Origin: Escherichia coli
Lineage (GTDB): Bacteria; Pseudomonadota; Gammaproteobacteria; Enterobacterales; Enterobacteriaceae
DNA length: 64,000 nt
Reading direction: 5' to 3' (one strand)
NCBI RefSeq assembly: GCF_001677475.2
Contig: NZ_CP015229.1
Shown here: positions 1,729 to 52,703 of the stretch, piece by piece
Layout of the letters: every line of letters starts with the position of its first letter
Numbering within the stretch: the stretch's first letter is position 1
Notes under the pieces: generated by a model
Seen by the model: the letters and a program-made list of their open reading frames with translations, nothing else
Database searches by the model: none
Told to the model about the DNA's origin: nothing
Position numbers and translations under genes: made by a program

Positions 1729-2271
1729 CCCGTGAATAAATCAATGTTGGCGGGTATCGGGATTGGTGTCGCAGCTGCGCTGGGCGTAGCGGCAGTGGCC
1801 AGTCTGAACGTGTTTGAACGGGGCCCGCAATACGCTCAGGTTGTTTCTGCAACCCCAATCAAGGAAACGGTTAAAACACCGCGTCAGGAGTGTCGCAACG
1901 TCACAGTGACCCATCGTCGACCGGTGCAGGATGAAAATCGCATTACCGGGTCGGTGCTCGGCGCTGTTGCTGGCGGCGTGATAGGGCATCAGTTTGGTGG
2001 TGGTCGTGGTAAAGATGTCGCCACTGTTGTGGGGGCGCTGGGGGGGGGATATGCCGGTAACCAGATCCAGGGCTCTCTCCAGGAAAGCGATACTTACACG
2101 ACTACGCAACAGCGTTGTAAAACGGTGTATGACAAGTCAGAAAAAATGCTCGGTTATGATGTGACCTATAAGATTGGCGATCAGCAGGGCAAAATCCGCA
2201 TGGACCGCGATCCGGGTACGCAAATCCCACTAGATAGCAACGGGCAACTGATTTTGAATAACAAAGTATAA
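1729..2271 (+). CDS. ycfJ: Glycine-rich surface/periplasmic protein YcfJ
   Basis: ORF 1693..2271; sequence MNKSMLAGIGIGVAAALG with glycine-zipper region. GTG start at 1729 is inferred. Confidence 0.75.
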   Translation, partial: PVNKSMLAGIGIGVAAALGVAAVASLNVFERGPQYAQVVSATPIKETVKTPRQECRNVTVTHRRPVQDENRITGSVLGAVAGGVIGHQFGGGRGKDVATVVGALGGGYAGNQIQGSLQESDTYTTTQQRCKTVYDKSEKMLGYDVTYKIGDQQGKIRMDRDPGTQIPLDSNGQLILNNKV

Positions 2272-2292
2272 CAAGGCTGTACTCTGCAATTT

Positions 2293-2327
2293 AGCCCCTC
2301 ATTCGCTCAGGCTGAGGGGCTTTTTTT
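2293..2327. terminator. Bidirectional rho-independent terminator between ycfJ and comR
   Basis: Seen in sequence: hairpin AGCCCCTCA...TGAGGGGCT followed by T-run. Confidence 0.5.
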
Positions 2328-2332
2328 GCGAC

Positions 2333-2965
2333 TTATTTCACCAGTTCGGGCCATAAACGCAAAGTCGTTCCGGCAATCTGCATCAGTTTTTCCAGCGATG
2401 CACCTTCGCGTGCGCTGATCGACATCCCCTGAATAATACAATTAAGGAATTCTGCCAGATGTGTCACGTCACAGTGGGTCGGGATTTCCCCGCGCGCTTG
2501 TCGTTGACATAAAAACTGCTGCAAAGTGCGCTCTTGCATCGCATGGCGTGATTTCAACGTATTGGCGATATCTCCTGAATCCGGGGAGAGGGTGGTGCAG
2601 TTGTTGATCATGAAGCAGCCTGCCGGGGTGTCTTTGCTGGTAAAGCAGTTGGCGATGGCAGCAAAATAGTCAGCCAGCGCAGACTCCACGCTTTTCTCTT
2701 CACAAAACAGCTGTGCTTCATGCTTAGCGGCAAAACGATCGATATAGCGGTCGAGTACGGCGCGGAATAACCCCTCTTTGTTGGTAAATTCCGCGTATAG
2801 CGTGGGCGCTTTGGCTCCGGTCGCTTCGACGAGGTCCGCAAGAGAAGTCGCTTCATAACCATGCTGCCAGAACAATTTCATGGCCTTATCAAGCGCGGCA
2901 TCCCTGTCGAACACTTTTGGGCGGCCACGGCTTTTTTTTACACATTGTGTTGAGTCAGTTGCCAT
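2333..2965 (-). CDS. comR: TetR-family transcriptional repressor ComR (YcfQ)
   Basis: ORF 2333..3043; N-terminal TetR HTH (GRPKVFDRDAALDKAMKLFWQHGYEATSLADL). Start at MATDSTQ is inferred. Confidence 0.8.
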   Translation of the reverse strand: MATDSTQCVKKSRGRPKVFDRDAALDKAMKLFWQHGYEATSLADLVEATGAKAPTLYAEFTNKEGLFRAVLDRYIDRFAAKHEAQLFCEEKSVESALADYFAAIANCFTSKDTPAGCFMINNCTTLSPDSGDIANTLKSRHAMQERTLQQFLCQRQARGEIPTHCDVTHLAEFLNCIIQGMSISAREGASLEKLMQIAGTTLRLWPELVK

Positions 2966-3205
2966 GATGCCGTTGTACCTGGTGACTGTGAATGGAAGGT
3001 TATTATAAAAATAATCACCTCCGTTCACCAGTCCAGAAACCATAAAAATAATTGCTTTCTATTTAACTGAAATTTAAAGGTTTTTAAATTAATTAATGAT
3101 TGTTATAAAAAATATCTTGTATGTGATCCAGATCACATCTATCATTTAGTTATCGATCGTTAAGTAATTGCTTACGACGCCATTCATCTGCATAAGGCCA
3201 CTATT

Positions 3206-3463
3206 ATGAAAAACGTAAAAACCCTCATCGCTGCGGCGATTTTAAGCTCCATGTCATTTGCCAGCTTTGCGGCTGTCGAAGTTCAGTCAACGCCAGAAGG
3301 CCAACAAAAAGTCGGTACTATCAGTGCTAACGCGGGGACAAATCTGGGATCGCTGGAAGAGTAGCTGGCGCAAAAAGCGGATGAGATGGGCGCAAAATCT
3401 TTCCGTATTACTTCTGTAACCGGTCCGAATACCCTCCATGGAACAGCAGTAATTTATAAATAA
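3206..3463 (+). pseudogene. bhsA: bhsA (ycfR) stress/biofilm protein, interrupted by in-frame amber stop at codon 53
   Basis: Translation from ATG 3206 gives MKNVKTLIAAAILSSMSFASFAAVEVQSTPEGQQKVGTISANAGTNLGSLEE then TAG at 3362..3364. Downstream frame continues LAQKADEMGAKSFRITSVTGPNTLHGTAVIYK to TAA at 3461..3463, matching recalled 85-aa BhsA. Confidence 0.7.
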
Positions 3464-3544
3464 GCATTAACCCTCATTAATGCCTGCTACTGCTGATTTT
3501 TTCCCCGCGACATGCCGTGTCGCGGGGATTTTTTTATCCGGGCT

Positions 3545-4510
3545 TTACAGAGTTTGTGGGCTCACTTGATGACGGCGGACATCCACCGGCATCCCGGAAC
3601 GGACATCCATGACATGTTGCATCACTTCAGCGTCAGTTTGTGCTGCATCTTTAAATGATTGCATTGCGCTATTCAGCGTAATTGGCAGCAGCTGCGGATC
3701 GTCATCAATCTTCTCTGACAGCGGCTGATGTACTTCAACCAGACGCGCACCGTTTGGTTCGGCAGAGACTTTAATCGGGGTGTTGATGATATTTACTTTG
3801 GTACCTGGGGTGACCTGGCTAAAGAGTGTTTTGATATCGTCATCCCGCAGACGAATACAGCCAGAACTTACCCGCATGCCAATGCCGAAATCGGCGTTCG
3901 TACCGTGAAGCAAATAAACGCCGCCATAGGCCGCCAGGCGAATCGCATGATGGCCCATTGGGTTATCCGGTCCAGCCGGAACTACCGCAGGCAACTCAAT
4001 TCCCTGTGCCTTATACCGCGCGCGGATGTTTGCCGTTGGCGTCCAGGTTGGGTTTGCACGTTTGTCTGAAACGGTGGTCACCATTGTCGGTGTCAGCGTG
4101 TCACCACCCAACTGACCAATGCCGATGGGATACACGGTTACCGAATTTTTACCCGGCGGGTAGTAATAGAGACGCAGCTCCGCAATGTTGATCACAATGC
4201 CTTCGCGCGGCGCGTCTGGAAGTAGGGTTTGCAACGGGATCGTTAACACGCTACCCGCGCGCGGTACGTAAGGATCAACGCCGGGGTTAGCCTGTAACAG
4301 AGCGAGAAAGCCGACGTTATATTTTTTGGCGATGGCTTCCAGAGAACCACCGTCATTTTCCACCACATGAAATTTGTTTTCACCAACCAGACGACTGCCC
4401 GCTGGTGGCAGCGGCCAGGTGTTGGCTTTTGCCGGTAGCGCCAGCGCCACGGCAGCGGCGAACGTAAAAAACGTTAGCCAGCGAGAAAAACGCGTTTTGA
4501 TCATCACCAA
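3545..4510 (-). CDS. ldtC: L,D-transpeptidase LdtC (YcfS)
   Basis: ORF 321 aa with signal peptide and YkuD-type L,D-transpeptidase motifs (HGT...SSGCIRL). Confidence 0.8.
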   Translation of the reverse strand: MVMIKTRFSRWLTFFTFAAAVALALPAKANTWPLPPAGSRLVGENKFHVVENDGGSLEAIAKKYNVGFLALLQANPGVDPYVPRAGSVLTIPLQTLLPDAPREGIVINIAELRLYYYPPGKNSVTVYPIGIGQLGGDTLTPTMVTTVSDKRANPTWTPTANIRARYKAQGIELPAVVPAGPDNPMGHHAIRLAAYGGVYLLHGTNADFGIGMRVSSGCIRLRDDDIKTLFSQVTPGTKVNIINTPIKVSAEPNGARLVEVHQPLSEKIDDDPQLLPITLNSAMQSFKDAAQTDAEVMQHVMDVRSGMPVDVRRHQVSPQTL

Positions 4511-17919: not shown

Positions 17920-19038
17920 TCAAATAACCAACTTAACCCATTCCTGACCTCGAGTATCGTTATAGCGATCGGTGGTTGCCTGGACTTTATGTCCTAGTAA
18001 TGTTTTTGTATCGATACCCTGTGCACGGTACAGCCGTTCTGATAGAGAGCGTTGTTCATGAAATGTTGGCGGAGTTTTTCCTGCTGGTGGAATTATCCCA
18101 GCCAGATCCCGTGCTTTGGCAAAGTAGTCGCTCAGGTTGTCTTTACTCATCGACTTCGGTTGTTTCTGGTGCCGACTATGGATTAGATATGGACTTAATA
18201 TTCTGTCTCGGCACCCATCAATAACTTCTTTTAACGTTATCCCAATGGCATCACAGCGTAGTGTAAGCGGTAACGCCAGACGCATTCCGGTTTTTCCTTG
18301 GGTGATATGCAAGTGTTCGTTCCACACATCTGAAAAACGCATGTGGCAAATGTCATCACGGCGCTGACCAGTAACAATCGCAAGAAGCATTGCGTTACGG
18401 ATAAAGTGTTTTTCAGGCGTTGCGTTGTAAATTTTTTGCCAGTCTTCCAGGGTGAGTCTGGCTCTGGTTACTTTAGGGATTGGTTTACGGGTAGCCTCCG
18501 GAGGATTCCATCCAGGAGGAACTTCCCCTGCATGCTGTGCTTCTTTATAAATATCAAGCCATAATCCGCGATTTACTCTCGCTGTGCTGACCATGTCTTT
18601 ATCCAGCCACTCATCCAGTATTAATGCAAAGTCTCTTACTTCCAGTTCTTTCAATGGGTGGTTTCCCAGACGGGAAACCAGGAATGCAGCCATTCGCGCT
18701 TTTTCTTTGTGGGTTGTAGCTGCAATATCTCCATTTTTCAGGCGCGCGTCCTGTATTTTCAGATATCGATCAACCCATGCCTTTAATCTGATACCCCGAC
18801 GTTTTGTTGCTGATGGACTTTCATCAATTTTGCGCATGAAATATTCAGCTTCTGCTGCAGCTATTCGCTGATTGGCTGTGGAAGCGATTTTTTCTGCCTT
18901 ACCTTTGTCTGTTCCGAGTCCGTGAAATTTTCCAGTCACAGGATTTTTATACTGGTAGTAAACTCTGCCAGTTCTGCGATCAAACTTTTCGTAAAGACCG
19001 GCTACGTCAGTGCTGTTTTTTCGTGGCCTCGGTGACAT
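17920..19038 (-). CDS. int: Phage integrase (tyrosine recombinase)
   Basis: 372-aa ORF with C-terminal tyrosine-recombinase catalytic region (R...HxxR...Y), next to the disrupted host gene. Confidence 0.85.
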   Translation of the reverse strand: MSPRPRKNSTDVAGLYEKFDRRTGRVYYQYKNPVTGKFHGLGTDKGKAEKIASTANQRIAAAEAEYFMRKIDESPSATKRRGIRLKAWVDRYLKIQDARLKNGDIAATTHKEKARMAAFLVSRLGNHPLKELEVRDFALILDEWLDKDMVSTARVNRGLWLDIYKEAQHAGEVPPGWNPPEATRKPIPKVTRARLTLEDWQKIYNATPEKHFIRNAMLLAIVTGQRRDDICHMRFSDVWNEHLHITQGKTGMRLALPLTLRCDAIGITLKEVIDGCRDRILSPYLIHSRHQKQPKSMSKDNLSDYFAKARDLAGIIPPAGKTPPTFHEQRSLSERLYRAQGIDTKTLLGHKVQATTDRYNDTRGQEWVKLVI

Positions 19039-32485: not shown

Positions 32486-32845
32486 ATGCGTATAGAATTT
32501 GTTTTGCCTTACCCGCCGACGGTGAACACCTACTGGCGACGCCGTGGCAGCACGTATTTTATATCGGAAGCCGGTAAGCGTTATCGCCGTGATGTGGCAC
32601 TTATTGTTCGCCAGCAGCGGCTGAAATTAAATCTGTCCGGAAGGCTGGCGATAAAGGTTATCACAGAGCCGCCGGATAAGCGCCGTCGTGATCTGGACAA
32701 TATCCTGAAAGCACCGCTGGATGCGCTGACGCATGCGGGGCTTCTCATAGACGACGAGCAGTTTGATGAAATCAATATTGTGCGCGGTCTGCCTGTTCCT
32801 GGTGGGCGGCTGGGGATAAAAATCACAGAGCTGGAGTGCGCATGA
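32486..32845 (+). CDS. rusA: Holliday-junction resolvase RusA
   Basis: 119-aa ORF aligning by eye with E. coli RusA (PYPPTVNTYWRRRG, RRRDLDN, GRL...ITE). Confidence 0.8.
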   Translation: MRIEFVLPYPPTVNTYWRRRGSTYFISEAGKRYRRDVALIVRQQRLKLNLSGRLAIKVITEPPDKRRRDLDNILKAPLDALTHAGLLIDDEQFDEINIVRGLPVPGGRLGIKITELECA

Positions 32846-41367: not shown

Positions 41368-43487
41368 ATCAGGTGAACGAGAGCCATAGCCGCGCATCCG
41401 ATATCTGGCGCGAAGTGGCCTCGCTGTTTCGCCCACCTGGCCGGTTACCAGTAGCGGAAGCCATCAGGCGTTATATGCGGGTACCACGGGGAGCCAACAC
41501 TTCCGGTCCGTGGGAGTCATCACTGACGCCCTATATGATTGACCCCATTAATACATTATCAGCCCGTGAATATGACGCGGTGGTGTTTGTAGGACCGGCG
41601 CGGACCGGGAAAACCGAAGGGCTGATTGATGGCTGGATTGTGTACGGCATCATCTGTGATCCGGCGGATATGCTGGTGGTGCAGATGACCGAGACCAAGG
41701 CGCGGGAACACTCCAGAACGCGTCTTTCCAGAACGTTTCGTCACAGCCCGGAGGTCAGTAAGCGTCTCAGTCCTTCCCGTAATGACAACAACGTCCACGA
41801 TAAAATGTTTCTTGACGGCTCCTTCCTGAAGATTGGCTGGCCGTCGATCACCGTATTTTCCTCCTCGGATTACCGTCGTGTGGCGCTGACGGATTATGAC
41901 CGTTTCCCTGAAAACGTGGACGGGGAAGGGGATGCCTTCACCCTGGCATCAAAGCGTACCACCACCTTTATGTCTTCCGGGATGACCCTGGTCGAGAGTT
42001 CACCCGGGCGGGATATCACTGACACCAAATGGCGATGTGGCGGCACACATGAGGCACCCCCAACAACGGGGATCCTGTCCCTGTATAACCGGGGAGACCG
42101 CCGTCGGTGGTACTGGCCGTGTCCGCACTGTGGGGAATATTTTCAGCCGGTGATGGATAACATGACCGGTTACCGGAATAACCCTGATTTTGTGGCTGCC
42201 GGGCAGGCGGCCCGCCTGATGTGTCCGCACTGCTGCGGCCTGATTGCTCCGGAACAGAAACGTGAACTGAATAACCAGGGGATCTGGCTTCGTGAAGGTG
42301 AACGGGCGGCGGCGGACGGCAGTATCACCGGAACGCCACGAAATTCCCGGATTGCGTCATTCTGGATGGAGGGGCCGGCTGCGGCGTTTCAGACCTGGGA
42401 ACAACTGATTTTTAAACTGCTGGCGGCAGAAGAAGAGTATGAGCGAACCGGCAGTGAAGAGACCCTGAAAGCGGTGGTGAACACCGATATCGGACGACCC
42501 TATCTGCCCCGTTCAGCCACGGAACAGCGTAAAAGTGAACTGCTTGAACAGCGTGCCGAGCCGTTTCCCCGGCGATCTGTGCCGGATGGTGTGCGTTTTA
42601 TTGAGGCAACGGTTGACGTACAGGGCGGTAAAAATCGCCGTTTTGTTGTGCAGATCACCGGATACGGAGAGCAGGGGGAACGCTGGATTGTTGATCGCTA
42701 CAACATCCGGCATTCACTGCGCTGCAGTCCCAACGGTGAAAGTCTGCCGGTTGATCCGGCGGCATATCCGGAGGACTGGGATTTGTTGCTGACGGATGTG
42801 CTCCATAAAACATGGCCGCTGGCTTCTGATCCGGATGTGCGCATGCGTCTGATGGCCATGGCGGTGGATACGGGAGGGGAAGCCGGGGTGACAGATAACG
42901 CCTATCGTTTCTGGCGTCGTTGCCGGAGTGACGGACTGGGCAACAGGGTGTTTCTGTTCAAGGGGGATGGTCTTCGCCGTGACAGGCTGATTAACCGTAC
43001 CTTCCCGGATAATACCGGCAGAAGTGCCCGCCGTGCCAGAGCCAGTGGCGATGTCGCGCTGTGGCTGGTTCAGACGGATGCGTTTAAGGACCGTGTAAAT
43101 AATGCCCTGTGGCGTGACACACCGGGGCCGAACTATATCCACTTTCCCGACTGGCTGGGGCGGTGGTTTTACGATGAGCTGACCTATGAAGAGCGCGGCA
43201 GTGACGGAAAATGGCGAAAACCGGGCAGGGGCGCTAACGAGGCGTTTGACCTGCTGGTTTATGCGGATGCGCTTGCCGTTCTGCATGGTTACGAAAAGAT
43301 CCGCTGGCCCTCCGCACCGGACTGGGCACAGCGGGAAACGTGGCTCGTCTTCCCGCAGGAGCGTTCTGGTGAAACGGCATCCCCGGAACTGACGGCCGGG
43401 GCAGTAAAACGCCGTCGCCGGAAGAAAAAACTGCGGACGGAGCGTGCGGAAGATAATCCATGGATAACATCAGGAGGCTGGTTGTGA
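41364..43487 (+). CDS. Terminase large subunit (GpA-like)
   Basis: 707-aa ORF with Walker A (VFVGPARTGKTEG). Confidence 0.85.
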   Translation: MNQVNESHSRASDIWREVASLFRPPGRLPVAEAIRRYMRVPRGANTSGPWESSLTPYMIDPINTLSAREYDAVVFVGPARTGKTEGLIDGWIVYGIICDPADMLVVQMTETKAREHSRTRLSRTFRHSPEVSKRLSPSRNDNNVHDKMFLDGSFLKIGWPSITVFSSSDYRRVALTDYDRFPENVDGEGDAFTLASKRTTTFMSSGMTLVESSPGRDITDTKWRCGGTHEAPPTTGILSLYNRGDRRRWYWPCPHCGEYFQPVMDNMTGYRNNPDFVAAGQAARLMCPHCCGLIAPEQKRELNNQGIWLREGERAAADGSITGTPRNSRIASFWMEGPAAAFQTWEQLIFKLLAAEEEYERTGSEETLKAVVNTDIGRPYLPRSATEQRKSELLEQRAEPFPRRSVPDGVRFIEATVDVQGGKNRRFVVQITGYGEQGERWIVDRYNIRHSLRCSPNGESLPVDPAAYPEDWDLLLTDVLHKTWPLASDPDVRMRLMAMAVDTGGEAGVTDNAYRFWRRCRSDGLGNRVFLFKGDGLRRDRLINRTFPDNTGRSARRARASGDVALWLVQTDAFKDRVNNALWRDTPGPNYIHFPDWLGRWFYDELTYEERGSDGKWRKPGRGANEAFDLLVYADALAVLHGYEKIRWPSAPDWAQRETWLVFPQERSGETASPELTAGAVKRRRRKKKLRTERAEDNPWITSGGWL

Positions 43488-43696
43488 GCACAGAAGAAGC
43501 CAGAGAGATGATACAGCGGTACCGTGAAGCGGAAATGGCCGTACTGGAGGGGAAGTCTGTCACCTTCAACGGACAGCAACTGACGCTGGAAAGCCTTTCT
43601 CAGATCCGCGCCGGACGTCAGGAGTGGGAACGCAGGCTTGCCGCGATGGTGAGCCGCAGGCGGGGAAAACCGGGATTTAAACTGGCGAGGTTTTAA
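43460..43696 (+). CDS. Head-tail joining protein (gpW-like)
   Basis: 78-aa ORF between terminase and portal. Assigned by position and size. Confidence 0.5.
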   Translation: MDNIRRLVVSTEEAREMIQRYREAEMAVLEGKSVTFNGQQLTLESLSQIRAGRQEWERRLAAMVSRRRGKPGFKLARF

Positions 43697-45198
43697 TGGC
43701 AATTATTGATGATGTGATAGGCGTGTTCTCTCCAGGCTGGAAAGCGGCCAGACTGCGTTCAAGGGCGTTAATCATGGCCTATGAGGCGGTGAAACCGACC
43801 CGGACACATAAAGCCCGGCGTGAAAATCGATCTGCTGATCAACTCAGTAAATATGGCGCGGTTTCCCTGCGGGAGCAGGCCCGTTTTCTGGATATCAATC
43901 ATGACCTGGTGATTGGTGTGTTTGACAAGCTTGAAGAGCGGGTGATTGGTGCCAGAGGAATTACTGTGGAGCCTCAGCCATTACGAAAAAACGGGGAAAT
44001 GGCGGCAGAGCTGGCTGCGGATATCCGCCGGTTGTGGGCTGAATGGTCCGTGAGTCCGGATGTGACAGGGCAGTATACCCGTCCCGTGCTTGAGCGTTTA
44101 CTGCTGCGGACCTGGCTGCGGGATGGTGAAGTGTTTGCGCAGATGGTCAGCGGTGCGGGAAACGGTCTGGAACGGACGGCGGGAGTGCCATTCTGGCTTG
44201 AAGCGATGGAGCCGGATTTTGTTCCCATGCGCAGTGATGAATCCGCCGGGCTGAATCAGGGGGTTTTTCTTGATGAGTGGGGCAGGCCGAAAAAATATCT
44301 GGTTTATAAAAATTATCCGGTCAGCGGCCGGCAGAGTGATACGAAAGAAATCGCCGCCGGAAAAATGATCCACCTGAAGTTCACTCGTCGTCTGCATCAG
44401 ACGCGAGGCTCATCCATGTTATCGGGGGTGCTGATGCGGATCAGTGCCCTTAAGGAGTATGAGGATGCGGAACTGACAGCGGCGCGTATTGCTGCGGCGC
44501 TGGGACTGTATATCCGTAAAGGTGACGGACAGGACTATGAAGATCCGGGGATCAAAGAAACCGAGCGGGAAGTCCATATCACCCCGGGGATTATTTATGA
44601 CGATTTGCGCAAGGGCGAGGATATCGGCATGGTCAAATCCGATCGTCCCAATCCCAACCTTGAAACTTTCCGCAACGGCCAGTTGCGTGCAGTGGCAGCT
44701 GGCAGTCGTCTGAGTTTTTCCAGTGCGGCGCGTAACTATAACGGCACCTACAGCGCCCAGCGGCAGGAGCTGGTCGAGTCCACGGATGGTTACCTGATCC
44801 TGCAGGACTGTTTTATTGGCGCGGTAACCCGCCCGGTGTACCGGACATGGCTGAATATGGTGGTTGCGGCAGGTCTGCTGAAAATTCCGGCGGATGTGGA
44901 GATGAAGACGCTATATAACGCGACGTATTCCGGTCCGGTGATGCCGTGGATCGACCCGGTTAAGGAGGCTGAAGCCTGGCGGATACAGATCCGGGGGGGT
45001 GCCGCGACGGAATCCGACTGGATCCGCGCAGGCGGGCGCAACCCGGATGAGGTCAAACGTCGCCGTAAGGCTGAAACTGAGGAAAACCGCAGGCTGGGGC
45101 TGGTCTTTGATACTGACCCCGCTAACGACAAAGGAGGCAACAGTGCCGGAACTGAACAACAGCGTCAGCAGGCCACCGACAGCCAGCATGAAGAATAA
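43696..45198 (+). CDS. Portal protein (lambda B-like)
   Basis: 500-aa ORF in portal position with lambda-family portal-like sequence. Confidence 0.8.
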   Translation: MAIIDDVIGVFSPGWKAARLRSRALIMAYEAVKPTRTHKARRENRSADQLSKYGAVSLREQARFLDINHDLVIGVFDKLEERVIGARGITVEPQPLRKNGEMAAELAADIRRLWAEWSVSPDVTGQYTRPVLERLLLRTWLRDGEVFAQMVSGAGNGLERTAGVPFWLEAMEPDFVPMRSDESAGLNQGVFLDEWGRPKKYLVYKNYPVSGRQSDTKEIAAGKMIHLKFTRRLHQTRGSSMLSGVLMRISALKEYEDAELTAARIAAALGLYIRKGDGQDYEDPGIKETEREVHITPGIIYDDLRKGEDIGMVKSDRPNPNLETFRNGQLRAVAAGSRLSFSSAARNYNGTYSAQRQELVESTDGYLILQDCFIGAVTRPVYRTWLNMVVAAGLLKIPADVEMKTLYNATYSGPVMPWIDPVKEAEAWRIQIRGGAATESDWIRAGGRNPDEVKRRRKAETEENRRLGLVFDTDPANDKGGNSAGTEQQRQQATDSQHEE

Positions 45199-47167
45199 AT
45201 CCTGGTTCAGGATGCAGGCGGGTGGTCAGGGTGAGGCGGATATTTATATTTATGATGAGATTGGTTTCTGGGGCGTCACCGCGAAGCAGTTTGTCAGCGA
45301 TATGAATGCCCTGGGTGATATCACCCACATTAATCTCCACATCAACTCACCGGGTGGCGATGTCTTTGAAGGCATCGCCATTTTTAATGCCCTGAAAAAT
45401 CACGGTGCGGCCATTACCGTGTATGTGGATGGCGTTGCCGCCTCGATGGCATCCCTGATTGCGATGGCCGGTGACACGGTCATTATGCCGGAAAATGCCT
45501 TCATGATGATCCATAAACCCTGGGGGATCAGCGGTGGTGATGCGGAGAAAATGCGCACTTATGCCGAACGTCTGGACAAACTTGAGTCGGTTATGGTGCC
45601 GGTATATGCGCAGAAAACCGGAAAAACCACCGATGAAATTTCCGCCATGCTGGCGGATGAGACCTGGATGTCCGGTGCCGAGTGTCTGGCACACGGATTT
45701 GCTGACCAGGTGACGCCAGCCGTTAAGGCAATGGCATGTATTCAGTCAAAACGTACAGAGGAATTTAAAAAGATGCCGGAATCCATCCGAAATATGATCA
45801 CGCAGCCACACAACAGTGCCCCGCGTGATACCACAGTGACAATCCCTGCACCGGCGGTAACAGAACCATCACCGGTACCGGCAGTGTCTGATGAGGCGAC
45901 CATTCGCGCCCGCGTTATGGCTGAGCAGAAAGCCCGCATGTCAGGCATTAACGATCTGTTTGCCATGTTTGGCGGGCGCTATCAGGCGCTTCAGGCGCAG
46001 TGTGTGGCCGATCCTGACTGTTCGCTGGAAATGGCCCGCGAGCGCCTTCTGAATGAAATGGGCAAGGAGTCCTCGCCGACCAACAAAAACACACCGGCCC
46101 ATATTTATGCCGGAAACGGCAATTTTGTGGGAGACGGGATCCGCCAGGCGATGCTGGCCCGTGCCGGATTTGAAAATGTCGAGAAGGATAATGTCTATAA
46201 CGGGATGACCCTGCGTGAATGGGCTCGCATGTCACTGACCGAGCGTGGTATTGGGGTGGCCAGTTATAACCCCATGCAGATGGTCGGGCTGGCGCTGACG
46301 CACAGCACCTCTGATTTTGGCAATATTCTGCTGGATGTGTCGAACAAGGGGCTGATCCAGGGCTGGGAGGAATCAGAAGAAACCTTCCAGAAGTGGACCC
46401 GTAAGGGACGCCTGTCAGACTTCAAAACAGCGTATCGCGTGGGGATGGGCGGTTTTGGTTCTCTGCGTCAGGTTCGTGAAGGGGCGGAGTATAAATACAT
46501 CACCACCTCAGATCGCAAGGAGACCATTGCTCTGGCCACTTACGGGGAGATTTTCTCCATCACCCGCCAGGCCATTATCAATGATGACCTGAATATGCTG
46601 GTTGACGTGCCGATGAAGATGGGGCGTGCGGCGAAGGCAACGATTGGTGACCTGGTCTACAAGGTGTTGACGGATAACCCGAAACTGTCAGACGGTAAGG
46701 CGCTGTTCCATGCCGATCACAAAAATATTGCCACCGGCGGGATCTCCGTTTCCGGACTGGATGCGGCCCGTCAGATGATGCGCCTGCAGAAAGAAGGCGA
46801 TCGCGCCCTGAATATCCGTCCGTCCTTTATGCTGGTACCGGTGGCACTGGAGACGGTGGCGAACCAGACCATCAAATCGGCCAGTGTGAAAGGGGCGGAT
46901 GCAAACGCCGGTGTCATTAACCCTATCCAGAACTTTGCTGAGGTGATTGCGGAAGCGCGTCTTGATGCGGCAGATCCGAAAACCTGGTATCTGGCGGCGG
47001 CACAGGGCACCGACACCATTGAAGTGGCCTGGCTGGATGGTGTGGACACGCCATACATTGATCAGCAGGAAGGTTTCACCACTGACGGTATTGCCACAAA
47101 AATCCGTATTGATGCCGGTGTGGCACCACTTGACTGGCGCGGACTGGTGCGTTCGTCGGTGGCCTGA
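45188..47167 (+). CDS. Fused prohead protease (ClpP/S49-like) and major capsid protein
   Basis: ORF 44999..47167; start at MKNKSW inferred. N-terminal ClpP-like motifs (INSPGGDVFEGIAIFNAL, ASMASLIAMAGD); C-terminal ~400 aa capsid-like. Confidence 0.75.
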   Translation: MKNKSWFRMQAGGQGEADIYIYDEIGFWGVTAKQFVSDMNALGDITHINLHINSPGGDVFEGIAIFNALKNHGAAITVYVDGVAASMASLIAMAGDTVIMPENAFMMIHKPWGISGGDAEKMRTYAERLDKLESVMVPVYAQKTGKTTDEISAMLADETWMSGAECLAHGFADQVTPAVKAMACIQSKRTEEFKKMPESIRNMITQPHNSAPRDTTVTIPAPAVTEPSPVPAVSDEATIRARVMAEQKARMSGINDLFAMFGGRYQALQAQCVADPDCSLEMARERLLNEMGKESSPTNKNTPAHIYAGNGNFVGDGIRQAMLARAGFENVEKDNVYNGMTLREWARMSLTERGIGVASYNPMQMVGLALTHSTSDFGNILLDVSNKGLIQGWEESEETFQKWTRKGRLSDFKTAYRVGMGGFGSLRQVREGAEYKYITTSDRKETIALATYGEIFSITRQAIINDDLNMLVDVPMKMGRAAKATIGDLVYKVLTDNPKLSDGKALFHADHKNIATGGISVSGLDAARQMMRLQKEGDRALNIRPSFMLVPVALETVANQTIKSASVKGADANAGVINPIQNFAEVIAEARLDAADPKTWYLAAAQGTDTIEVAWLDGVDTPYIDQQEGFTTDGIATKIRIDAGVAPLDWRGLVRSSVA

Positions 47168-47253
47168 TAACCGCGTTATCACAATCACTGCCCGAAAGGG
47201 CTTTTTTTATGCCTGAAAACAGCCCCCCGGGGGCTGTCCGGAGAGACAGCATT

Positions 47254-47580
47254 ATGGCTAAAAATTTTGTACAGGACGGCACCACCATTGAGCTGGTGAA
47301 TGCCGGGGATCAGACCATTCTGAGCGGTGCCGCTGTGGTGGTTGGCAGCATGGTGGCAGTGACCATTACCGATATTCCTGCCGGGGAGACCGGTGACGGG
47401 TTCGCCGAAGGCGTGTTCCTGCTGCCCAAACAGTCTGCCGACGATATTCAGGCCGGTGTGGCGGTTTATCTGAAGGACGGGACTGTGCAGCCTGCCGCAG
47501 ACGGTGCAGTGGCGGCGGGAATGGCATGGGAGCATGCGCCGTCAGGCACCACCACGGTGGCGGTTAAAATCAATGCCTGA
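47254..47580 (+). CDS. DUF2190-like head protein
   Basis: ORF 47209..47580; start at MAKNF inferred; Gly/Ala/Val-rich small protein after the capsid gene. Confidence 0.4.
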   Translation: MAKNFVQDGTTIELVNAGDQTILSGAAVVVGSMVAVTITDIPAGETGDGFAEGVFLLPKQSADDIQAGVAVYLKDGTVQPAADGAVAAGMAWEHAPSGTTTVAVKINA

Positions 47581-47854
47581 TCTGTTTGCGCGAATGTGCA
47601 GCCGGATGGACCTGGCGACCGTACGCATGATGGGGAAAACGGCGGAGATTAACGGCGTAGTGTATGACGTGATACCGGAGTATGAGTCTGCGGATATGGG
47701 GGCGCTTTCCGGCAGTCAGTTGTCACTGGTGGTGTTTTCAGCGCAGTACCGGCCGGCCCGCGATGATGTGGTTGTGTTTGACGGTCGCTCACTGGTGGTG
47801 ACCCGTTATGACACGTACAACGGTAATCCCCGGATTTTTGTCGAACAGGAATAA
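47573..47854 (+). CDS. Head-tail connector protein (FII-like)
   Basis: ORF 47504..47854; start at MPDLFARM inferred; position upstream of Z. Confidence 0.5.
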   Translation: MPDLFARMCSRMDLATVRMMGKTAEINGVVYDVIPEYESADMGALSGSQLSLVVFSAQYRPARDDVVVFDGRSLVVTRYDTYNGNPRIFVEQE

Positions 47855-50526: not shown

Positions 50527-52615
50527 TTTTGCCGATCTGACAGCTGTTCTTACACTGGATTCAACCCGTTTTTCTGAAGAGGCTGCACGGGTAAAGAAAG
50601 AACTGGGTGAAACCAGTGACCTTGCGGATTTGATGGCCGGGCGTGTCAGCCAGTCTTTTAAGAAACAGGCCACTGCCGTTGAACAGGGGCTGAGCCGTCA
50701 GGCGCTGGCTGCACAAAAAGCCGGGATTTCCGTCGGGCAGTATAAAGCGGCCATGCGTACCCTGCCTGCACAGTTTACGGATATCGCCACGCAGCTTGCC
50801 GGTGGTCAGAATCCCTGGCTGATCCTGCTGCAACAGGGCGGTCAGGTGAAGGACGCCTTCGGCGGGATGATCCCCATGTTCAGGGGGCTTGCCGGTGCGA
50901 TCACCCTGCCGATGGTCGGGGTCACCTCGCTGGCGGTGGCGACAGGTGCGCTGGCGTATGCCTGGTACCAGGGGGATTCCACGCTTTCAGCGTTTAATAA
51001 AACCCTGGTTCTTTCCGGTAATCAGTCCGGACTGACTGCCGATCGCATGCTGACGCTCTCCAGAGCCGGACAGGCAGCAGGGCTGACGTTTAACCAGGCG
51101 AGTGAGTCACTGGCAGCCCTGGTGAATGCCGGTGTGCGTGGTGGTGAACAGTTTGATGCCATCAACCAGAGTGTGGCGCGTTTTGCTTCTGCATCCGGTG
51201 TGGAAGTGGACAAGGTTGCAGAGGCTTTTGGAAAGCTGACCACCGACCCGACGTCGGGACTGATGGCTATGGCGCGCCAGTTCCGTAACGTGACGGCAGA
51301 GCAGATTGCGTATGTTGCGCAGCTGCAGCGTTCGGGGGATGAGGCAGGGGCCTTACAGGCGGCGAACGATATCGCCACAAAAGGCTTTGATGAGCAGACC
51401 CGTCGCCTGAAAGAAAACATGGGGACGCTGGAAACCTGGGCGGATAAAACCGGGAAGGCATTCAAATTGATGTGGGATGCCATCCTGGATATCGGTCGTC
51501 CTGAATCCTCAGCGGATATGCTCGCCAGTGCGCAGAAGGCATTTGATGAGGCGGATAAAAAATGGCAGTGGTACCAGAGCCGGAGTCAGCGTCGGGGAAA
51601 GACCTCCTCTTTCCGTGCCAACCTTCAGGGTGCATGGGATGACCGTGAAAATGCCCGTCTGGGGCTGGCGGCAGCCACGCTGCAGTCGGATATGGAAAAA
51701 GCCGGTGAACTGGCGGCAAGGGACCGGGCTGAGCGTGAGGCGTCACAGCTGAAGTATACCGGAGAGGCGCAGAAGGCGTATGAGCGCCTGCTGACGCCAC
51801 TGGAGAAATATACTGACCGGCAGGAAGAGCTGAATAAGGCCCTGAAAGACGGGAAAATCCTGCAGGCGGATTACAACACGCTGATGGCGGCGGCGAAAAA
51901 GGATTATGAATCGACGCTGAAAAAACCGAAGTCGTCAGGTGTCAAAGTGTCAGCCGGGGAGCGTCAGGAAGACCGGGCGCATGCAGCCATGCTGGCGCTT
52001 GAAACTGAGCTCAGGACGCTGGAGAAGCATGCCGGTGCGAATGAGAAAATCAGCCAGCAGCGCCGGGATTTGTGGAAGGCGGAGAGTCAGTTCGCGGTAC
52101 TGGAGGAGGCGGCGCAACGTCGCCGGCTGTCTGCACAGGAGAAATCCCTGCTGGCGCATAAAGACGAGACGCTGGAGTACAAACGCCAGCTGGCTGACCT
52201 GGGCGACAAGGTTGAACATCAGAAACGGCTGAATGAGCTGGCACAGCAGGCGGCGCGGTTTGAACAGCAGCAGAGCGCGAAGCAGGCCGCCATCAGCGCA
52301 AAAGCCCGCGGCCTCACCGACCGTCAGGCGCAGCGGGAGTCGGAAGAGCAGCGCCTTCGTGACGTGTACGGTGATAATCCGGATGCGCTGGCGAAGGCCA
52401 CATCTGCACTGAAGAACACCTGGTCTGCGGAGGAGCAGCTTCGTGGAAGCTGGATGGCCGGGCTGAAATCCGGCTGGGGTGAGTGGGCGGAAAGTGCCAT
52501 GGACAGTTTTTCGCAGGTTAAAAGCGCGGCCACGCAGACCGTTGACGGTATTGCACAGAATATGGCGGCGATGCTGACCGGCAGTGAACAGAACTGGCGC
52601 AGCTTCACCCTATGA
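50516..52615 (+). pseudogene. H: Tape-measure protein H, N-terminal ~700 codons (interrupted by IS21-family element)
   Basis: ORF 50507..52615 ends FTL* exactly at the IS left terminus; the H frame resumes after the IS. Confidence 0.8.
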
Positions 52616-52703
52616 GACGACAATAACTCAGTCCGCCTGGCGCCGATTATTCTGGCCGGTTTTGTAACCTGAGTGTCATTTACATGATCCAACAGGAAAT
52701 GGC

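Follow-up and report, generated by a model that had tools for sequence, protein, structure and literature searches.

A tripartite capsid gene is reportedly carried by the Salmonella prophage Gifsy-2, in an account by Effantin et al. from 2010 (Virology 402:355). The Gifsy-2 fusion is cited as a described arrangement in passages of PMC12315714 and PMC8538268, and a single gene of three domains (gp5) was described in 2021 in Pseudomonas MD8-like phages (PMC8508860). This article deals with a gene of this type in a lambdoid prophage of Escherichia coli (NCBI RefSeq assembly GCF_001677475.2, contig NZ_CP015229.1), located within a stretch of 64,000 nucleotides (nt) that is referred to here as the window and to which the coordinates apply. 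A single chain encoded by one intact prophage gene of the window comprises the protease of head maturation, a scaffold-like segment and the major capsid protein. We are highly confident in reading it as the Gifsy-2-type protease-scaffold-capsid gene of this prophage, with an assembly route and a nested start that are proposed below. The fusion itself is already known, because it has been described for Gifsy-2 and for MD8-like phages, is named by an NCBI model and is widespread; it belongs to a curated, named family, and nothing about it is out of the ordinary except for an internal start signal that is not annotated and is the sole element that might be new.

The gene and the Gifsy-2 capsid gene (NC_010393.1, 22471-24561) are collinear over their full length, with about 60% identity and 76% positives over 696 columns, and they share the MPE N-terminus and the domain order of protease, central segment and capsid protein. 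Pseudomonas phage vB_Pae_CF24b has the same three-domain gene, with a product that is 57.6% identical, and the phages of family NF045540 (CP-1639, VT1-Sakai, Shiga toxin 2 (Stx2)-converting phages and mEp460) show no substantive difference from the window gene. DNA-level matches were obtained in 28 phage records, including CP-1639, VT1-Sakai, mEp460 and many Stx2-converting phages, with 95-98% identity to CP-1639 and several Stx-converting phages, and 82 phage records span at least 80% of the fusion protein. Among the best 150 representatives of 50%-identity protein clusters, more than 100 cover the whole query, and most of the 150 are full-length fusions at 36-60% identity. The head region is matched in 2067 of 5426 complete E. 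coli genomes (about 38%).

The fusion gene and its domains

The plus-strand frame that contains the gene is uninterrupted from stop to stop (44999-47167) in the open reading frame (ORF) listing of the window. Translation from ATG 45188 gives 659 residues without an internal stop and ends at TGA 47165-47167; residue numbers in this article follow that form. The ORF is not a chance feature, since it is 2 kb long and has strong full-length database matches. Its parts are listed below, with pLDDT standing for the predicted local distance difference test score of the structural models.

45143-47167, plus strand: full tripartite gene (protease, linker/scaffold, capsid protein), 674 residues from the probable GTG start
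45131-45137, plus strand: Shine-Dalgarno sequence AAGGAGG of the probable true start, 5 nt upstream of GTG 45143
45233-45727, plus strand: ClpP-type (S14) prohead protease domain, residues 16-180, from Pfam, NF045542 and ClpP structures
45443-45445, 45512-45514 and 45704-45706, plus strand: codons of the catalytic residues Ser86, His109 and Asp173, from alignment to solved ClpP structures
45728-45892, plus strand: variable linker rich in Pro, Ala and Thr, residues 181-235, gap-rich in the alignment and poorly conserved
45893-46069, plus strand: helical scaffold-like segment, comparable to a delta domain, residues 236-294, conserved across homologues
46070-46123, plus strand: putative maturation-cleavage zone, residues 295-312, placed by a dip in pLDDT
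46124-47164, plus strand: HK97-fold major capsid protein domain, residues 313-659, from Pfam, AlphaFold and Foldseek

The whole window is a close relative of E. coli 08-00022 (NZ_CP013662.1), from which it differs by insertion sequences (IS) and indels, and the 6-kb stretch around the fusion gene is 100% identical in both. In that near-identical record the NCBI Prokaryotic Genome Annotation Pipeline (PGAP) names the gene, at the same coordinates, 'ClpP-like prohead protease/major capsid protein fusion protein' (WP_149003157.1). The product matches NCBIfam NF045540 (scaf_prot_MCP1) from end to end, with residues 17-657 on model positions 2-651 of 652 and 994.1 bits against a cut-off of 475, and PHROG 133 also aligns over its entire length. 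Pfam assigns CLP_protease to residues 30-176 (E 1.6e-36) and Phage_capsid_4 to residues 369-656 (E 6.4e-56), together with a weaker match to Mu gpT. The protease part also passes the domain model NF045542 ('head maturation protease, ClpP-related'), whose cut-off is 120 bits, with 220.9 bits. In contrast, the equivalog model of cellular ClpP, TIGR00493, yields 64.1 bits where 308.6 would be required, which does not agree with a cellular ATP-dependent ClpP, and no ClpP equivalog or subfamily model came near its cut-off in the NCBIfam scan of the fusion protein. Given that the models of cellular ClpP score far under their cut-offs, the product name 'Clp protease ClpP' is misleading, and the many records that apply it to the coat gene hide a capsid gene from prophage mining.

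The true start of the gene is probably GTG 45143 rather than ATG 45188. GTG 45143 lies in frame, 15 codons upstream of the ATG, and its anti-Shine-Dalgarno duplex energy is -11.6 kcal/mol compared with -2.5 kcal/mol at ATG 45188, which has no Shine-Dalgarno sequence. The close homologues P0005, P0008 and P0011 read ...RLKNNSWF without a Met at the 45188 position and have the N-terminus MPELND, more distant homologues begin with MPK, and the annotated N-terminus of Gifsy-2 (MPEV) aligns with the 45143 start. The longer form is favored on account of the strong Shine-Dalgarno sequence, the homologues that lack a Met at 45188 and the alignment of the Gifsy-2 N-terminus. The NCBI/RefSeq records of the protein cluster are split between 659-residue and 674-residue start calls, with PGAP using the 659-residue form here, and the comparative evidence supports the longer of the two.

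Regarding the protease, the catalytic residues lie in the motifs GVAASMA (Ser86), MIHKPWG (His109) and GFADQV (Asp173). All of the 100 aligned homologues, at 34-78% identity, retain Ser86 and His109, and 76% of them have Asp173. The ClpP-fold domain looks catalytically competent. An AlphaFold2 model of the whole protein (mean pLDDT 89.9) contains a ClpP-like alpha/beta domain that ends near residue 180 and, from residue 313 onward, a large alpha/beta domain that reaches the C-terminus. In the intervening region, residues 208-232 of the linker are predicted to be disordered (pLDDT <50) and residues 236-294 are predicted to form three helices (pLDDT 94-97), for which a scaffolding function is suggested by analogy. 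Between the helical segment and the N-arm of the capsid domain, at about residues 291-310, pLDDT drops to 55-71, and a maturation cleavage of the fusion protein would probably be located within residues 295-312, on the basis of this model.

A Foldseek search with the whole model returned ClpP chains only (template modelling score 0.75-0.84, normalised to ClpP length), and for this reason the capsid half was remodelled alone. The model of residues 300-659 (pLDDT 92.8, predicted template modelling score 0.87) gave 387 matches in the PDB at E<=0.001. All 50 of the listed matches are HK97-fold capsid or encapsulin shells, the top ones being HK97, Mu, D3, SaPI1, mycobacteriophages and encapsulins. 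Sequence searches with the capsid half detect relatives of solved structure only among Mu-type coat proteins, and these matches are weak (best Mu coat protein, E 2.4e-5). The C-terminal domain is an HK97-fold major capsid protein encoded in the same uninterrupted frame as the protease.

Two readings that deny the fusion were weighed against these data, and nothing was found that contradicts the fusion itself. According to one of them the gene would be an artefact or a decayed pseudogene, made of two genes joined by error or mutation in a defective prophage, a view to which the damage of the prophage elsewhere (an IS21-family insertion in H) and a reverse case, in which the gene is split by a 1-nt frameshift in a related locus (L174), might lend some color. 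It is met by the retention of the single frame in Gifsy-2, mEp460, Ayreon, Stx2-converting phages and Pseudomonas phages as well as in the more than 100 diverged cluster representatives mentioned above, at 35-60% identity, and by the match to a full-length curated model; we give it practically no credence, and conservation has already refuted it. The other reading, that the C-terminal half is a scaffold only and that the capsid gene lies elsewhere, is excluded by the HK97-fold identity of this half, to which the Phage_capsid_4 match and the PDB matches of its model add up, and the head module has no lambda E-like or other capsid gene; no evidence in support of this reading was found, and its likelihood is negligible. 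The first-pass annotation of the window had proposed a protease and a major capsid protein in a single ORF, unlike the separate C, Nu3 and E genes of lambda, and both points are borne out by the intact frame, the Pfam domains and NF045540. It had named the scaffold-only reading as the one that would overturn this proposal, and an HK97-fold domain was found in its place. Some details are revised: of the class 'ClpP/S49-like' the ClpP/S14 part stands and the S49 part does not (SppA/S49 models are marginal and far under their cut-offs), the protease measures about 180 residues instead of about 250, with the linker and scaffold-like helices accounting for another 125 or so, and the supposed 400-residue capsid-like domain is indeed a capsid protein, of about 350 residues.

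A candidate nested start at Met196

The linker between the protease and the scaffold-like helices contains an ATG that may serve as a second start. Its elements are the following.

45758-45762, plus strand: internal Shine-Dalgarno-like sequence GAGGA, 10 nt upstream of the Met196 codon
45773-47167, plus strand: candidate nested product, Met196-Ala659, 464 residues, with linker, scaffold-like helices and capsid protein and without the protease

The first sign of this start came from the protein alignment, in which the Pro/Ala-rich linkers of distant homologues hold a Met with residues rich in Glu, Lys and Gly three to five positions upstream; an in-frame Shine-Dalgarno sequence followed by ATG would encode exactly such residues and then Met. 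In the enterobacterial and Pseudomonas clade the motif at Met196 is EEFxxMP; the counterpart of Met196 in Gifsy-2 is Met221. The DNA of this clade was compared in 42 non-redundant genes (<92% amino acid identity), 41 of which have ATG at the Met196 column. The sequence (G/C/A)AGGA is located exactly 10 nt upstream of this ATG in 38 of the 41, and the remaining three have an AGGA or GGAGA core shifted by 1-2 nt, so that the core is present in 41/41. Codon 191 (GAG, CAG or AAG) has G as its third base in 40/40 genes and is the sole column at 100% G among 33 conserved Glu/Lys/Gln columns, the other Glu columns having 19-63% GAG. Likewise, the third base of codon 188 is A in 39/39 genes, and this is the sole column at 0% G among the 33. 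These frozen synonymous sites (codons 188 and 191) lie within window positions 45751-45775 and have equivalents in the loci L003, L004 and L007-L172. Since they precede an invariant in-frame ATG, they indicate selection on the nucleotide sequence.

Outside this clade the linkers can no longer be aligned. An in-frame linker ATG with a canonical Shine-Dalgarno sequence at 6-9 nt was found in 8/8 distant homologues, for instance GAAGGAGGgcgttATG and AAAGGAGGctatcATG, and in all eight it ranks first to third in Shine-Dalgarno pairing among the 22-29 internal ATGs of its gene. The ranks were then pooled over 47 non-redundant genes (<80% identity): the best ATG of the linker zone is in the top three in 43 of them, where 31% would be expected. 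In the 16 genes that have no Met196-type ATG, the linker ATG ranks first in eight (expected 8.6%; simulated p 1.5e-5) and within the top two in 12 (expected 17%), a count that was reached in 0 of 200,000 simulations. Among the 100 homologues that diverge most, just 7% have Met196 itself, and no Met between the domains is conserved family-wide at one column; the candidate start signal is positional, not columnar, and extends across the family down to about 35% identity. The duplex energy of the internal site in the window (-6.0 kcal/mol) is comparable to those of the start sites of the portal (-7.1) and cement (-6.6) genes. The 464-residue product would carry an N-terminal part of about 110 residues, in part disordered linker and in part helical, followed by the coat domain.

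On the whole it seems likely, with some room for doubt, that translation also begins at ATG 45773 (Met196), guided by the embedded AGGA site, which would give two nested products. That such a protease-free scaffold-capsid chain is both real and not yet described is put forward only tentatively. In the records inspected, including those of PGAP, the internal Met196 start is not annotated, and a full-text literature search found no prior mention of it, with the original Gifsy-2 paper lying beyond the reach of that search.

Several observations weigh against a start at Met196. Its Shine-Dalgarno sequence is moderate, in energy and in its 10-nt spacing, versus the -11.6 kcal/mol of the upstream start. 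Met122, a conserved residue of the protease domain, is preceded by an equally Shine-Dalgarno-like string and so is Met161 of the same domain, both strings arising from Gly or Glu codons (Gly codons at Met122). The likeness to a Shine-Dalgarno sequence is therefore not diagnostic on its own, and the argument relies on the freezing of synonymous sites and on the rank statistics in unalignable linkers. The relatives of the Met196 clade share ancestry and constitute a single lineage instead of independent observations. Finally, an IS21-family element interrupts the tape-measure gene of the prophage, and the fusion gene may never be used here for making infectious particles.

A rival account is that of a single polyprotein, in which each capsid subunit would be made with its own protease and scaffold, both removed after assembly, and the internal ATG and AGGA would be incidental. 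The strongest ribosome-binding site is indeed at the 5' end, the literature on the family treats it as one gene product and Met122 illustrates that codon content alone can yield Shine-Dalgarno-like strings. Yet the synonymous third positions upstream of Met196 stay constant among neighboring codons that vary, distant and unalignable linkers independently carry an ATG with one of the best Shine-Dalgarno sequences of their gene, and a disordered linker rich in Pro and Ala offers no evident reason at the protein level for a run of Glu, Lys and Gly followed by Met. We regard the polyprotein-only account as possible and rather unlikely. The nucleotide constraint tells that the RNA or DNA sequence matters and not why, and the motif coincides with the point where the protease fold ends, as would suit a signal in the RNA other than initiation, such as a translational pause that gives the protease domain time to fold ahead of the linker. 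A pause, however, needs no ATG, and an in-frame ATG always follows at a spacing typical of Shine-Dalgarno sequences in alignable and non-alignable linkers, which makes this explanation improbable. Initiation at Met196 is retained as the preferred reading.

Two loci that had been considered as stand-alone scaffold-capsid genes were rejected. In P0212, which seemed to start at 'MP', the contig begins 35 nt upstream. In P0162 (positions 1857-3832 of locus L174, GCA_000755365.1), from a draft genome with a degraded prophage, a frameshift of 1 nt close to where the protease domain ends splits the fused gene, which is called as a 201-residue ClpP plus a 443-residue product; the N-terminal 'MP' of the latter is the one at which the internal start is proposed. 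Neither P0212 nor P0162 adds independent support for the nested start.

The head module and the rest of the prophage

The fusion gene is flanked by the following genes and signals.

40891-41367: small terminase subunit TerS (DUF1441), 36% identical to Gifsy-2
41364-43487: large terminase subunit TerL, 67% identical to Gifsy-2 and 24% to lambda gpA
43484-43696: small W-like adaptor, 53% identical to Gifsy-2
43696-45198, plus strand: portal (PHROG 21), 64% identical to the Gifsy-2 portal and 21% to gpB
47190-47208, plus strand: hairpin GCCC-GAAA-GGGC followed by seven T, terminator-like, directly after the fusion stop codon
47254-47580, plus strand: head cement/decoration protein (Pfam Phage_cement_2, PHROG 122), 50% identical to Gifsy-2 STM1034
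47573-47854, plus strand: head-tail connector (Pfam 'Gifsy-2'), 36% identical to Gifsy-2, last gene of the head module
from 47857: tail genes gpZ, U, V, G, T, H and following

The 3' end of the portal gene overlaps the start of the fusion gene. The same neighbors occur in Gifsy-2 (TerS, TerL, W-like gene, portal, fusion, cement protein and connector), and the order of portal, fusion and cement genes is kept in isolated phages and in 7/8 distant metagenomic or genomic loci, the contig of the eighth ending before the downstream gene. BLASTP and TBLASTN comparison with lambda found no match to Nu1, W, C, Nu3, D, E, FI or FII, and the annotation of the head module shows no second capsid gene between the portal and the tail genes. 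The tail proteins are 54% (Z), 55% (U), 75% (V), 66% (G), 74-75% (T), 91% (M), 99% (L) and 96% (K) identical to those of lambda, and they are more distant from Gifsy-2 than from lambda (Z, 28% vs. 54%; V, 54% vs. 75%). A mosaic joint is therefore placed at about 47855, as the genes from terminase through connector are Gifsy-2-like and the likeness to lambda begins with gpZ and the rest of the tail. The first-pass annotation had described lambda-like terminase and tail modules and a head module that does not look lambda-like. The comparison with related head modules that it recommended, in which Gifsy-2 proved collinear at 36-67% identity, agrees with the non-lambda character of the head. The tail is confirmed as lambda-like at 54-99% identity from gpZ onward only, and the terminase is not lambda-like, in view of the low identity of TerL to gpA and the lack of a BLAST match between TerS and Nu1. 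The suggested mosaic is thus real, with its joint between the connector and Z genes and not around the capsid gene.

The hairpin at 47190-47208 falls under the 5-pair threshold of the hairpin scan and was read directly from the sequence. Phage Ayreon has an annotated terminator at the equivalent place after its fusion gene, and the hairpin may attenuate transcription after the coat gene.

Several features of the prophage were recorded in addition. It is located between potC and potB with the integrase beside potC (window about 17920-19038 and flanks), as in the related strain 08-00022, where an IS1 that the window lacks lies about 2.3 kb upstream of the prophage. A 2.4-kb IS21-family element (52611-55020), with an IstA-like ORF at 52704-54203 and IstB at 54200-54955, interrupts the lambda-H-like tape-measure gene: the match to lambda H stops at 52609 and resumes at 54975, and 6 bp of the flank are duplicated. 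In NZ_CP013662.1, otherwise near-identical, the tape-measure gene is uninterrupted, and the prophage copy of the window is probably tail-defective. In the tail-tip gene (about 58265-61369) the match to lambda J covers residues 1-854 and is followed by a shifted, weaker match of 50% identity; the corresponding gpJ gene of the related record is a pseudogene without its C-terminus, and the tail-tip gene may be damaged or recombinant. A stretch of about 1.06 kb (38981-40036), flanked by the genes for lysozyme and the Rz-like lysis protein, is absent from NZ_CP013662.1. A segment at 32815-35088 also differs from the related strain and contains, in the late-regulatory region of the prophage, a tRNA-Met (34822-34897) and a tRNA-Arg (34999-35075). 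Stx-type lambdoid phages often carry tRNAs in this region. No ORF of Stx A length is present among the listed ORFs of at least 120 residues downstream of the tRNAs, stx not having been searched for directly. In the Stx1 phage VT1-Sakai (AP000400.1) the orthologous fusion gene is matched in two pieces with an IS629 insertion between them, and its coat gene is considered disrupted because this insertion splits the match.

Proposed assembly and comparison with known systems

A head of the Gifsy-2 type would be expected to undergo proteolytic maturation to a coat protein of about 35-40 kDa and to form a T=7 shell with decoration trimers. By analogy with Gifsy-2, HK97 and lambda, the chains encoded by the fusion gene would co-assemble on the portal into a procapsid, with their protease and scaffold parts facing inward. 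The full-length chain would bring the protease into the shell, and the 464-residue chain would contribute scaffold and capsid only. The protease would then strip everything N-terminal of about residue 300 from all chains and digest itself, leaving a coat protein of about 350 residues. Upon DNA packaging the shell would expand, and trimers of the cement protein would stabilise it in place of crosslinks of the HK97 type; the presence of a cement protein gene suggests that no chain-mail crosslinking takes place. In this scheme the ratio of protease to coat protein would be fixed at translation, as in lambda C/Nu3, with the coat protein included.

If only a polyprotein is made, the question arises of how a shell with some 415 coat subunits escapes taking in about 415 proteases, and an internal start would offer an answer. 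If the nested start is true, phage annotation pipelines should call a second, nested coding sequence in these genes, as is done for lambda Nu3.

With regard to lambda, the locus resembles the C/Nu3/D/E region in that a serine protease of a related clan (S49 there, S14 here) is encoded upstream of scaffold functions, and in that a small accessory protein which stabilises the shell is encoded nearby (D in lambda, the Phage_cement_2 gene here). The nested in-frame scheme of C and Nu3 would be a further likeness if the internal start is real. Unlike in lambda, the coat protein lies within the same frame and the cement gene comes after the coat gene and not before it. A head module of lambda type, with homology to C and Nu3 and a separate E, is not what was found, as no match to these genes was obtained and the proteins related in function to gpA and gpB are only 24% and 21% identical.

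The likeness to HK97 gp4/gp5 concerns the HK97-fold coat protein and an N-terminal helical assembly segment, predicted here, that a protease of the phage removes. The proposed 464-residue nested product is laid out like HK97 gp5 (delta domain plus capsid). The protease is the point of difference, being ClpP-fold and covalently joined here and a separate S78-type enzyme in HK97; in place of an upstream S78-type protease gene, as in HK97-type modules, a ClpP-type domain was found in the same frame as the capsid protein.

Among the systems that share the three-domain gene, the MD8/CF24b-type Pseudomonas phages also have a Met196-type ATG with AGGAG upstream, and they differ in host genus and in their flanking tail genes, which are unrelated to those of lambda. 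Gifsy-2 differs in the sequence of the linker and in its tail, the tail module described here being closer to lambda than to Gifsy-2, and in that the tape-measure gene of the present prophage is disrupted by an IS.

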